This document shows positions 1-3,000 of a stretch of DNA of 64,000 bases, piece after piece (position 1 is the first letter of the stretch; each line of letters opens with the position of its first letter). Origin of the DNA: Escherichia coli O157:H7. GTDB taxonomy: Bacteria > Pseudomonadota > Gammaproteobacteria > Enterobacterales > Enterobacteriaceae. Location: the NCBI RefSeq assembly GCF_013167455.1, contig NZ_CP038328.1; one strand, written 5' to 3'. Position numbers: made by a program.

Positions 1-3000
1 ATCACAACAATAAATGACTGATCATACCTGAAATTTGAATTAACAGGCATCATGAATGTCAATAGTCTAAGCGGTGACTACTTATATCGCTTGCATAAAT
101 ACTAAACACTGACTAGAAAAGTATTGGATAACCCCGTCACTAAAAGTAACGCTTCGGTTATTTGCTCGGAATGTATTAACGCCAAGATTGTTAGCCGTTA
201 CGCCTTATATCACTGGCGCTGACAAATGTTTCTTTTCTAATTTACTGAACCGGCGCAGACACGCAGGAAAGCACGCCGGCACCGGTGTAATGCCAGTTCT
301 AATCAATAAGAATGGAATGACGAATCAGTCAGGAAGGGATAACAACCCGCTGCTGAACGGAAGGTATCAGCAGGAAGATGAACGGGAATATCGCCAGCAC
401 CAAGGGCAGGGCCGGGTTCCACAATACCAGCGCTGGCATTTTGCACATTGCCAGCGTACCGGCATTACAACACGTTTCATGCTGCTGCCCCCCAGGATTC
501 CTCGATTCGTTGCTACATCCACTGCTCTACTTCACTTCCACTGCTCCACTTCACTTTTGTACCAGCGGCTGCTGCGCCCCAGTTTGATGGGTTTAGGGAA
601 ATGGCCTTCACTGATCAACTTGTAAAACCATTTGTCGGTCATACCGGTGAAACTGGTGATATAGTTCATGTCGATCAGGGAATTATCGGCACGCAGAAAT
701 ACGCTGTCGTGGCTTGTTGTAGTCAACATGGTCAGAATGTCCTGTGAGATTTATGAAGATTGTGCGAATGCGGGAAATCTACTGAGCTGTGCTTTCAGAA
801 CTGGCCTGTTACGGGATACCAGGGATTACCGGCGGGGTAACGGGCTTCCGGATCATACACACCACGATTATCGCGGACAAAATCACTGAACGCCCATATC
901 ACCTCTTTAAGTATGTCTTCGCAGTCCGGTAAATGACGATCCAGCGCCACATCCCGGGTGGTACAGCTTTGATGCGCCCGGTGACACAAAGCCCGGATTG
1001 TTCCAGACATCCTGAATCAAACGCCCCAGATTAGGGGCGTCGAAATATGCCTCTCTGACCATTATATTCCGGCGTATAGGTAGCAGGTCTGAAGTGACAA
1101 TGCGTCACCTGACGTTAAAAGTCACCCAAGATGACCCCAGTGGGGGCAACAAGTATAAAACCGTTTTTTGATTAAGTGGTCGGATATGAAAAGGGGAAGG
1201 TTTATGTGAAAAATACCTGTGTTTTCTTTGAAAACACACAACAGTATCAGGTTATTTATGTTTATACAGTGCGTTCCAAACTGACCTGAATAATTACGCA
1301 AGTTGCAACAATAAAACATTTTTGCCGTAGTGTGAGGTACTCCGGTAAATTGCTTCCCAGGTGCAGACAATGACTAACGAAGAACTACAGGCAATCGCAT
1401 TATCCATGCTTGAGCGCCAGCGCGAAAAAGTACACCAGCAACGAGAGTCTTTGCTTAACCCATCTCCATTCACCAGGCCAAAACGATTGGAGCTTGAAGC
1501 ATTCTTGGACAAATACCCACGGCGGCTTAAATCAGGCAAAACCAGACCACCAGGCTGATAGCTCACAGTTTGTTCTCCGATTCAATAAAACGGATAAGAA
1601 CCATCAGCGCGGTAGCGTAAGGCACTACAGCGCATTGCTTTACGAGTAATAACAATGGATTTATCACCAGAAGACGCAAAGTTTTTACGAGAACTGCAAC
1701 ACCGTATGCTCAGAGAAGCCATTATCGAACAGCAAACGGGCATGAGCGCCATAGACCCATTGCGATACAAACGGGCCTCATCTCCTTTAGTTGACGACAA
1801 TTCCAATGCGGATAAAACACGTCCACCACACTGATTACATTTTTCATTAGCACAGTGGTGTGATGCAGCATACGAGGAAAACCGGATGAATGAGAACAAA
1901 ATAAAAAGGCTGGAGCAACTGTTACAGGCACGCCAACGGGAGTTTGCCACTAAATGGGGACGTGCCGCGCTGCCACATGAACGCCTAACCTATTTTCCAC
2001 TTGAAGACCTCATTAAAAATAATGGCAAAAAAATCAGGTCTGATAAGAAACACTTCTTAGAATGCAATGAAGACAAATAACAACAATCTGCATATTGCCA
2101 CCAACCACAGATGTGGCATCGTTATCAGCGCACTTGATTTTCTTTATATCCACTGACGAGTTTGCCGGTCATTCTGGTATCATGCAGATATTTACGGCGT
2201 ACAAGCACACTAGCATGACATTGTAATAAGGCCTGAGCCTAACGCTTTAATGTGTGTCATACACTCAGTGGCGTAATCGTTGACAATATGGTGCATGTAA
2301 TCGTAAGCGTCCAGCGAAATCCATCTGGTCATAATCTGAAGCATCCGACAAAGTGGTGTCCACCAAATAAGTGATCTGCGCCCAATATCCTGAGCCGGAA
2401 CTTTGACAAAGGCCAACGAAAAATGGGAGCGGATGTTACAGAGTTCTCGGTACAGGGGAAAAGTGGTACCTGTCGCCAGTTCTCCGATCTGTTTAACCGG
2501 GAAATTATCTCCTACAGCTTGTCAGAAAGGTCGGTGATGGAGCATCGTTAATACGATGCTATACGATGCATTCACAGTGCCCGGCCAGAGGATGCCCCGT
2601 CGCTGCATATGGATCAGGGTTGGCAATATCGAATTGCAGGCTATAGGCAAAGTTAAAGCCCCATGGAGTAGCACAAAATATGCCGCACAAAGGAAACGGT
2701 CTGAATAACGCAGTGATGAAGAACTTCTTCAGCACACTGCTAAAACGCATAGTGATCGAGCGCTGATTCTGGCGAACAACTGAACTAATACATCAGAATC
2801 TGCATTATGTTAAATAAATATAAAAAGATGGTTTAAATACCCCGTTACTTTTGACTTACACTATACGGTATCGCATCGTTTAATATTCGCACCGGCCAGA
2901 TTTTTATTTCTATTAGTTGTCACAATACTGAATGCGTACGACCACAGTATTCTGGCTCCTGTGTGGTTATGCTTTAATTCTGCGTTCCGGGCAGATAAGC

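Follow-up and report, generated by a model that had tools for sequence, protein, structure and literature searches.

According to the account of P4 in PMC10111431 (citing Forti et al. 1999), the immunity region of this satellite contains a long open reading frame (ORF), eta, that runs across PLE, CI and seqA, its end enclosing the nested kil gene; the late transcript is the only one from which eta is translated, and this translation is coupled to the alpA homologue vis and prevents termination. Gram-negative phage-inducible chromosomal islands (PICIs) and the capsid-forming cfPICIs follow the order Integration (int, alpA), Bro, Replication and Late, and the published descriptions examined make no mention of small cistrons on the opposite strand. 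In Escherichia coli EDL933, a preprint that is not peer reviewed describes the small overlapping-gene candidate OGC51 as embedded antisense in a minus-strand "mother gene" of 90 amino acids (aa) (Zehentner et al. 2020, bioRxiv 10.1101/2020.11.18.388249). Here, we analyzed a stretch of 64,000 nucleotides (nt) of Escherichia coli O157:H7 (assembly GCF_013167455.1, contig NZ_CP038328.1), referred to as the window, in which OGC51 is the first of three small ORFs arranged in tandem on the plus strand.

We consider the following overall reading probable: the segment from approximately 1152 to 2320 is a stranded piece, now a relic, of the zone between alpA/Bro and the isrK-C4-icd cassette of Escherichia PICI/P4-type satellites. 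The firm parts of this reading are the origin of the segment in that zone, the two-strand layout of the intact elements and the arrangement of the window ORFs as three cistrons with two intact leaders. The three ORFs are as follows.

1361-1558 from GTG (65 aa) or 1370-1558 from ATG (62 aa), plus strand: ORF1 (ORF listing; RefSeq)
1655-1834, plus strand: ORF2, 59 aa, ATG start (ORF listing)
1886-2080, plus strand: ORF3, 64 aa, ATG start (ORF listing)

The initial annotation had described co-oriented ORFs of 65, 59 and 64 codons, the first two of which end in ...KSGKTRPPG and ...DKTRPPH, and both the coordinates and the tails were recovered exactly. All three ORFs lie in a common reading frame (their starts are congruent modulo 3), with spacers of 96 nt between ORF1 and ORF2 and 51 nt between ORF2 and ORF3. 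The most likely start of ORF1 is the ATG at 1370, giving 62 aa, because an AGG motif lies 8 nt upstream, all homologues begin with MTNEEL and RefSeq uses this form. ORF1 corresponds to RefSeq WP_000180465.1 and to OGC51, while ORF3 corresponds to WP_001004881.1; the Prokaryotic Genome Annotation Pipeline (PGAP) calls both hypothetical proteins and leaves ORF2 unannotated. Searches of the three products against Pfam, PHROGs, NCBIfam and PADLOC gave nothing above noise (the best match was one PHROG of unknown function, E 0.07), and ribbon-helix-helix (RHH) models, including PF13132 (DUF3950), gave no match at E ≤ 1. In tblastn searches with ORF1, the phage collection gave no match, and the plasmid matches were all pieces of E. 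coli chromosome that had been mis-assigned.

When ORF1 and ORF2 were compared directly by BLASTP, only the tails aligned, with 5 of 8 residues identical (E 0.029), which is weak by itself. Of the 24 clusters (E ≤ 1e-3) returned by a hidden Markov model search of 1.84 billion representative proteins, P0015 was a coiled-coil repeat false positive, and the motif (K/R)xxK(N/T)RPPG forms the C terminus of most aligned members. The alignments place all three ORFs in a small unnamed protein family, defined in this analysis as the RPPG-tail family, that was seen only in Escherichia/Shigella. The named members that were looked up are all from E. coli, and Shigella and E. albertii also appear in the supplementary tables of the preprint on OGC51 (bioRxiv 10.1101/2020.11.18.388249). 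Members are 56 to 94 aa long and, in alignment A5, consist of a variable long N-terminal helix, often with ...LSILERQREK..., followed by a linker rich in Pro, with a conserved Pro at its end, and by (K/R)FALEDFLDKYPRRLKSGKNRPPG; the motifs in order are an (I/L)xERQ(R)E helix, the conserved Pro, a FALExFL-type (FALEDFL) helix, PRRLK and a basic KYPRRLKxxKNRPPG tail.

Judged by profile match and architecture, ORF1 shows every feature and is a canonical member. ORF2 belongs to a subtype beginning with MDL(S/P)PED, and its N-terminal half matches the 92-aa L002b/P0027 protein; the tail is kept and the FALExFL core is gone. The DNA encoding its tail aligns with the tail of the full-length relative at satellite locus L002, and this alignment continues past the stop codon into the 3' flank; ORF2 is thus an internally deleted family member. 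ORF3 has an ARQRE helix and an F-P-LEDLIKN core with a different end in place of the RPPG tail, aligns in A1, A2 and A5, and has P0013 and P0024 as relatives; we class it as a divergent member, with its profile match being partly circular because ORF3 was itself in query alignment A2. The proposed paralogy of the first two ORFs was thus borne out, as the homology search suggested for the peptides did find homologues, the tail proved to be the conserved C terminus of the family, and the relationship extends to ORF3 through an N-terminal helix with an ERQRE-like motif, the Pro, a FALExFL-type helix and a basic tail. The KTRPP tails reflect shared ancestry, not chance. At the DNA level, the window contains only short, chance-level repeats and no tandem duplication; therefore, the paralogy is old. 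AlphaFold modeled ORF1 with a confident helix at residues 3 to 29, a short helix at residues 41 to 48 and a disordered tail (predicted local distance difference test score, 78.7; predicted template modeling score [pTM], 0.36), and the model resembles a small helical adaptor, not an enzyme or toxin fold.

Two further family members had an unusual setting or record. Clustering at 90% identity groups the 57-aa member P0028 with a 584-aa Pseudooceanicola "sulfate permease," which looks like a clustering artefact in the protein collection. A second stranded member (P0033), with a weak leader match (16.7 bits), occurs in L067 (1514-1702) and L068 (874-1062) outside any satellite, with a porin fragment on one side and a molybdopterin oxidoreductase gene on the other, and beside a helix-turn-helix gene of insertion sequence (IS) type.

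Among 5426 complete E. coli genomes, approximately 670 carry an 870-bp block containing the three ORFs, in most cases with an identity of at least 99% (577 records at ≥99%). Its distant DNA relatives, with 75% identity, are phage satellites in which the matching DNA lies between alpA and an icd-like gene, and it was the plus-strand ORFs of these relatives that made the family relationship clear. Family genes were found in PICI/P4-type satellites at loci L002 to L005 and L069 to L072 and in 18 of 20 IMG/VR loci; the block of the window itself is L006. The satellites carry, in order, int, alpA, an optional Rha/Ant "Bro" gene, the zone of small ORFs, icd-like, DUF4222, primase, SSB, PerC and sometimes capsid genes, and this is the order known from Gram-negative PICIs and cfPICIs. 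Rfam models identified an isrK-like element and a C4 antisense RNA on the minus strand directly upstream of icd-like in L002 and L003. The small ORFs occupy the opposite strand, divergent from the immunity cassette and convergent on alpA, in arrays of one to four plus-strand cistrons, several of them family members. An RHH gene (DUF3950/YlcI type or Arc-like) often precedes the family gene, and the neighbor in L004 matches DUF3950. YlcI/YnfO (DUF3950) RHH proteins are thus frequent upstream neighbors of the family cistrons in the same plus-strand array, whereas ORF1 to ORF3 carry no DUF3950 or other RHH signature and the window contains no RHH gene.

Among the satellites, the C4 junction differs between L002 (5841-5870, GUGGUAA) and L003 (4841-4870, AGGCCAA), both on the minus strand, and its predicted target in the isrK-like element differs with it (UUACCAC and UUGGCCU, respectively). 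This joint difference looks like immunity-specificity covariation.

Every satellite locus examined also contains a minus-strand ORF of 250 to 765 codons that covers the small genes and, in most loci, continues through isrK and C4 to a terminal Icd-like peptide. It begins either overlapping the stop codon of the upstream Rha/Ant gene or approximately 57 nt after alpA. Over 0.9 to 2.3 kb at 14 loci, this frame has no stops, compared with 16 to 49 in the other two minus-strand frames. Given the plus-strand proteins, synonymous recoding usually adds stops, and the combined probability of finding none was approximately 1e-3 to 2e-5, depending on the codon-usage null. Base composition was rejected as the cause of the open frame, with an A content of 23 to 28% on the minus strand and 16 to 49 stops in the other minus-strand frames. 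The only domain matches of the long ORF are Phage_ASH, over the isrK and C4 RNA genes, and Icd-like, at the C-terminal end, and the part antisense to the small genes would encode 5 to 6% Cys and 15 to 19% Ser, whereas the plus-strand products have an ordinary composition. PGAP annotates minus-strand ORFs of 295 to 502 aa in satellites as "hypothetical" or "Icd-like," including the 502-aa "Icd-like" of L002, and its choice of strand is inconsistent: some genomes have ORF1 on the plus strand and others have an overlapping minus-strand ORF of 90 or 101 aa (L030 to L032).

In L002, the PF10554 "Ash protein family" match covers 5647-5907 on the minus strand (residues 362 to 448 of the 502-aa ORF), over the isrK-like and C4 genes at 5819-5895 and 5707-5794. 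PF10554 may therefore largely model the translation of conserved RNA genes.

By its position, the minus-strand ORF appears to be an analogue of P4 eta/kil. Like the P4 immunity region, the intact satellites have a long ORF leading from alpA/Bro through isrK-like (seqA-type) and C4 (CI-type) RNAs to an Icd/Kil-like peptide. In contrast to P4, which has no match to ORF1 by tblastn in the phage collection, the satellite ORF is extended by 0.6 to 1.5 kb that carries the antisense small-protein cistrons and their hairpin leaders. The window preserves pieces of a similar ORF.

1294-1566 and 1582-1950, minus strand: two in-frame pieces of a former eta-like ORF (tblastn with the L002 502-aa ORF, E 2e-60)
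2131-2320, minus strand: frameshifted remnant of the N-terminal part of the eta-like ORF (tblastn with L002 residues 21-45 and 50-84, in two frames)

Between 1296 and 1992, this frame has 1 stop, compared with 7 and 16 in the other two minus-strand frames. Across 1130 to 2420, it has 9 stops, the outline of the former ORF being still visible, and it gives no Icd-like match in the window.

Since the overlapping plus and minus frames share their third codon positions, periodicity is uninformative about which strand encodes protein. Among five ORF1 orthologues, omega was 0.20 to 0.45 in the plus frame, 0.32 to 0.85 in the open minus frame and approximately 1 in other frames. Differences per site were most frequent in the class that is silent on the plus strand and replacing on the minus strand (0.64), followed by doubly silent changes (0.48), changes replacing on the plus strand and silent on the minus strand (0.35) and changes replacing on both (0.24). 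Thus, the minus-strand amino acid sequence is unconstrained and the plus-strand sequence is constrained. Swaps among the Arg codons AGA, CGA and CGT and between the Leu codons CTT and TTA leave the plus-strand protein unchanged, in agreement with this result. Additionally, the plus-strand ORFs have conserved ATG starts, AGG or GAGG motifs 8 to 9 nt upstream and conserved stop positions.

Published data also cover the expression of ORF1. OGC51 is listed in the preprint with the identical 65-aa sequence at NZ_CP008957.1:1110682-1110879, and in EDL933 it had transcript values of 109 and 95 reads per kilobase per million mapped reads (RPKM), footprint values of 37 and 77 RPKM and a ribosome coverage value of 0.56, together with a reported vanadate overexpression phenotype (bioRxiv 10.1101/2020.11.18.388249). 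Thus, with homologues and expression both on record, the combination that the initial annotation had named as telling against genuine genes, namely no homologues and no expression, does not hold. The coordinates of ORF2 and ORF3 had no match in those candidate tables of the preprint that we consulted. Its mother gene is the 90-aa minus-strand ORF at 1294-1566 of the window, and its HHblits matches to long Ash, Icd-like and AntA proteins correspond to the eta-like ORFs of the present analysis. The preprint and our analysis thus share ORF1 itself and the overlapping 90-aa minus-strand ORF as their subject; however, the portions of the preprint available to us treat a single overlapping pair and do not note a satellite immunity zone, the paralogy of ORF2 and ORF3, a leader hairpin or an eta-like "mother" ORF.

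The family cistrons are preceded by a leader of approximately 60 nt with a 9-bp hairpin, for which the aligned examples gave the consensus ATAA-N6-10-CAGCGCCGTGG-TGTGAGGTA-CTACGGCGC-ATTGCTTTACAGG-N7-ATG. A covariance model (R1), built from seven leader copies, found 37 matches in 25 sequences of the first set of loci, all on the plus strand, directly 5' of a small ORF and in register with its start codon. Where a DUF3950/RHH gene lies upstream in satellites, the leader sits right after its stop codon. The window gave two R1 matches, before ORF1 and ORF2, and none before ORF3.

1308-1375, plus strand: leader 1, hairpin TTGCCGTAG / loop TGTGAGGTA / CTCCGGTAA, then ATTGCTTCCCAGG-N8-ATG (R1, 74 bits, E 9e-15)
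1593-1660, plus strand: leader 2, hairpin GCGCGGTAG / CGTAAGGCA / CTACAGCGC plus ATTGCTTTACGAG...ATG (R1, 79.7 bits, E 3.5e-16)
1850-1885, plus strand: degenerate leader remnant before ORF3, CAGTGGTGTGATG...GAGGAAAACCGG (recognized by eye, weak evidence)

In leader 1, two outer pairs show compensatory changes from GC to UA relative to the consensus, and leader 2 folds at -17.3 kcal/mol (z -2.5). The remnant at 1850-1885 was missed by R1 and folds no better than shuffled sequences. Across the alignment, 94.7% of cells in the 9-bp stem are paired, three pairs show compensatory double changes, and pairing is lost when the partner columns are slid. Several stem pairs are G-U or U-G, which would become A-C mismatches in a minus-strand RNA, and the hairpin folds better on the plus than on the minus strand. 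Because of these G-U pairs, the stem pairing and the better plus-strand fold, the leader is better read as an RNA element of the plus strand. Rfam searches assigned no known RNA family to the leaders.

Leader or tail DNA was matched in 1492 of 5426 E. coli genomes, and the 18-mer of the hairpin core is absent from representative genomes of other species: a search for the exact core in one genome per species gave 33 matches, all of them chance occurrences in unrelated GC-rich genomes and none fitting R1. At locus L018 (4316-4867, plus strand), an RHH-like gene is followed by a divergent leader copy (37 bits) and then by an unrelated, strongly hydrophobic ORF of 50 aa (MLKLKKHVPMMVALIITIFLLISCF...), which may be a membrane peptide carried as cargo in the same cassette slot. 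The hairpin therefore marks the cassette boundary, not the family alone. The hairpin was also considered as a target of the C4 RNA and rejected: the best site for the C4 loop is the isrK-like element (-31 kcal/mol, the positive control), while the hairpin reached -22 kcal/mol, within the range of chance sites.

The copy in the window has lost most of its former context. Compared with the satellites L002, L003 and L071, homology spans approximately 1152-1794 and 2094 to approximately 2320; blastn and tblastn gave an identity of 75% between 1164-1794 and L002 5914-6537 and of 67% between 2094-2302 and L002 6681-6912. The ORF3 unit is an extra cassette that is absent from L002, L003 and L071. The features that delimit the fragment are listed below.

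~1152-2320, no strand assigned: satellite-derived fragment of the alpA/Bro-to-immunity zone, cut on the left before the isrK/C4/icd position and on the right by IS debris
1218-1238, minus strand: inverted repeat TGTGTTTTC/GAAAACACA with a T-rich tail, a terminator-like match in the presumed divergent control region and a possible operator or terminator

The repeat lies within a stretch homologous to the satellites' control region. A scan of 1050-2450 for sigma-70 promoters and terminators found no more sites than in shuffled sequences and did not locate the plus-strand promoter. An Rfam search of positions 1 to 6000 at E ≤ 10 found no C4 or isrK RNA, and an IS-type DDE fragment is annotated from approximately 2375. 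In sum, the cassette at the window no longer has isrK, C4, icd or the gene that once lay upstream of it. It differs in this from P4-type immunity cassettes, having neither the C4/isrK RNAs nor icd nor an intact long ORF, while 14 satellite loci have the long ORF reaching Icd-like; compared with Gram-negative PICIs, it is a fragment of the Bro/immunity zone only, with an unrelated alpA gene to its left. The description of the region as decayed was correct, as the flanks consist of a frameshifted pseudogene, IS fragments and the broken minus-strand ORF.

Over its first 4 kb, the window matches E. coli O157:H7 and further Shiga-toxin strains with 100% identity, and the neighbors (ter genes, iha, IS fragments and pseudogenes) are those of the tellurite-resistance/adherence island. 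Other pathotypes carry the block in different islands, where it again adjoins the same IS fragment and iha. We compared eight iha-linked copies of the block, which are 98 to 100% identical. ORF1 is intact in all eight, with 4 replacement changes and 1 silent change; ORF2 has a stop at codon 20 (R20) in L026 and L029 and a 6-bp deletion in L031; and ORF3 has a 1-bp frameshift in L027 and L028. The substitution density of the ORFs (approximately 3.2%) is not below that of the spacers (approximately 4.9%). Because isrK, C4 and icd are gone, the minus-strand ORF is broken and the plus-strand ORFs evolve as if neutral, we interpret the three-ORF array as a relic traveling with the iha module, not a maintained module, even though ORF1 is reported to be transcribed and occupied by ribosomes in EDL933.

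For the intact satellites, these observations are consistent with the following mechanism. The plus-strand cistrons would be genuine protein genes, now or formerly, with a promoter that diverges from that of the immunity cassette. In the plus-strand RNA, the hairpin would control translation or intercistronic stability, or it would bind a protein. The minus-strand ORF would be kept open so that ribosomes on the AlpA-driven late transcript suppress premature termination, as by analogy with eta, with its amino acid sequence being irrelevant. The family proteins are most likely small satellite adaptor or regulatory proteins that dock on a conserved partner through the C-terminal motif, and this is the weakest step. 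In a bolder and rather doubtful extension, the 1 to 2 kb separating alpA/Bro from icd would be used twice over, with the minus strand serving as a ribosome track and the antisense, hairpin-led array of RHH and RPPG-tail genes as an undescribed switch or helper-interference module, with the O157 ORFs as its fossil.

Several points weigh against the interpretation as a stranded immunity zone with protein-coding cistrons. With wobble positions shared, omega is inherently a weak means of telling the strands apart, the sequence pairs lack independence, and the order of the two classes that are replacing on one strand only was reversed in 1 of 10 pairs. The covariation of the hairpin rests on few lineages, the element being more than 85% conserved in sequence, and a role of the leader at the DNA level, for instance as a protein-binding palindrome, is compatible with the data. 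The translation of the minus-strand ORF and its prevention of termination rest on analogy with P4. The AlphaFold model comprises two helices and a disordered tail only, without a compact fold at a pTM of 0.36, so that the adaptor step is a guess, and family members have no domain match in any library and none has a known function. OGC51 falls below the preprint's own conservative footprint thresholds (bioRxiv 10.1101/2020.11.18.388249). Finally, the presence of an intact ORF1 in all eight variants is also compatible with weak retention.

Among the alternatives, the functional product could be the plus-strand RNA, a cis-antisense transcript with repeated hairpins that collides or pairs with the AlpA-driven late transcript and aids quiescence, the ORFs being incidental or RNA stabilizing. 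We consider this unlikely. The leader hairpin is indeed the best-conserved part of the unit, above the N termini of the ORFs, it recurs one to four times in each element and is present in 1492 of 5426 E. coli genomes, it also precedes the unrelated hydrophobic ORF of L018, and the array is wholly antisense to the late read-through ORF. However, the C-terminal protein motif is kept through synonymous codon swaps, plus-strand replacement changes are depleted, start codons and ribosome-binding motifs are conserved, and no pairing partner was found, as the C4 loop does not single out the hairpin. The RNA and protein readings are not mutually exclusive. Less likely still, the small plus-strand ORFs might not be genes at all but shadows cast by RNA or DNA elements and by the conserved eta-like ORF on the minus strand, with the ribosome footprints as noise. 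This would fit the minus frame being the one kept open over 0.9 to 2.3 kb, the shared wobble positions, through which a plus-strand omega below 1 could partly mirror minus-strand constraint, the PGAP calls of the minus-strand ORF instead of ORF1 in some genomes and of the 502-aa "Icd-like" in L002, and the failure of OGC51 to reach the conservative footprint threshold. It would leave unexplained that the class silent on the plus strand and replacing on the minus strand changes fastest (0.64 versus 0.48 for doubly silent changes) while plus-strand replacements are depleted, that the minus-strand product has a composition unlike that of proteins and no domain match over the small-gene part, and that the plus-strand ORFs have conserved ATG starts, AGG or GAGG motifs 8 to 9 nt upstream, conserved stop positions and a strand-specific hairpin with G-U pairs in front, beside neighboring plus-strand cistrons that match the DUF3950 RHH domain.

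The least probable explanation, in our view, is that the O157 island has domesticated the three ORFs as a module that still functions today, acting as small regulators or as a toxin-antitoxin-like pair. The preservation of ORF1 in all eight diverged iha-linked copies, its transcription, footprints and reported vanadate overexpression phenotype, and the presence of the block in approximately 670 complete genomes speak for such a module, but the last figure reflects clonal sampling of O157 (577 records at ≥99% identity). In the same eight copies, ORF2 has a nonsense mutation in two and the 6-bp deletion in one, ORF3 is frameshifted in two, and ORF1, with its 4 replacement changes to 1 silent change, belongs to a block whose ORFs have a substitution density no lower than the spacers. 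We found no toxin, antitoxin or defence domain, the ORFs are paralogues rather than two partner types, and translational coupling is absent. The toxin-antitoxin-like module proposed in the initial annotation is therefore not supported: its supposed partners are paralogues of one another, separated by 50 to 100 nt of hairpin-bearing leader without coupling, they match nothing in Pfam, NCBIfam, PHROGs or PADLOC, and ORF2 and ORF3 are knocked out in several strains. The hallmarks of a type II system in particular, namely two different partner genes, an antitoxin with a DNA-binding domain, a toxin fold and close coupling, were not found here. The other proposal, small prophage regulators, was correct in the phage-related origin, which is the control zone of a PICI/P4-type satellite and not a prophage proper; the role as regulators is putative, and the products gave no match to a DNA-binding domain, although RHH proteins often neighbor them in intact elements.

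Under the stranded-zone interpretation, the window itself matters little, being an ordinary, partly published and decaying hitchhiker of the iha module. A satellite immunity zone, with one strand selected for protein and the other only for openness, would account for OGC51 and its mother gene as its two strands, and such a two-strand zone would explain both the strand flipping of automatic annotation and the "Icd-like" or "Ash" calls of 400 to 760 aa. Approximately one-quarter of complete E. coli genomes carry the cassette of RHH gene, hairpin leader and small ORF, which makes a candidate quiescence control of Gram-negative PICIs. In the literature on YlcI/YnfO/DUF3950, PICI regulation and P4, we found no description of hairpin-led small genes antisense within an eta-like frame.

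Other features of the same region were also recorded. To the left of the block, an AlpA-family gene lies at 532-729 on the minus strand (PF05930, E 5e-10), with a frameshifted hypothetical pseudogene upstream on the same strand at 795-1065; both probably belong to a different remnant, because they are not syntenic with the small-ORF block in the way seen in intact satellites. In many O157 genomes, an insertion of approximately 1.3 kb of the IS3 family (IS1203) lies within the stretch 1-4000; the window lacks it, and the match in those genomes is split into two pieces that together span 5313 bp. In the AT-rich spacer between the small-ORF block and iha, positions 3481-3554 on the minus strand gave a full-length Rfam match to Esr41, a small RNA of enterohaemorrhagic E. 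coli (108.6 bits versus a gathering threshold of 102, E 3e-21).

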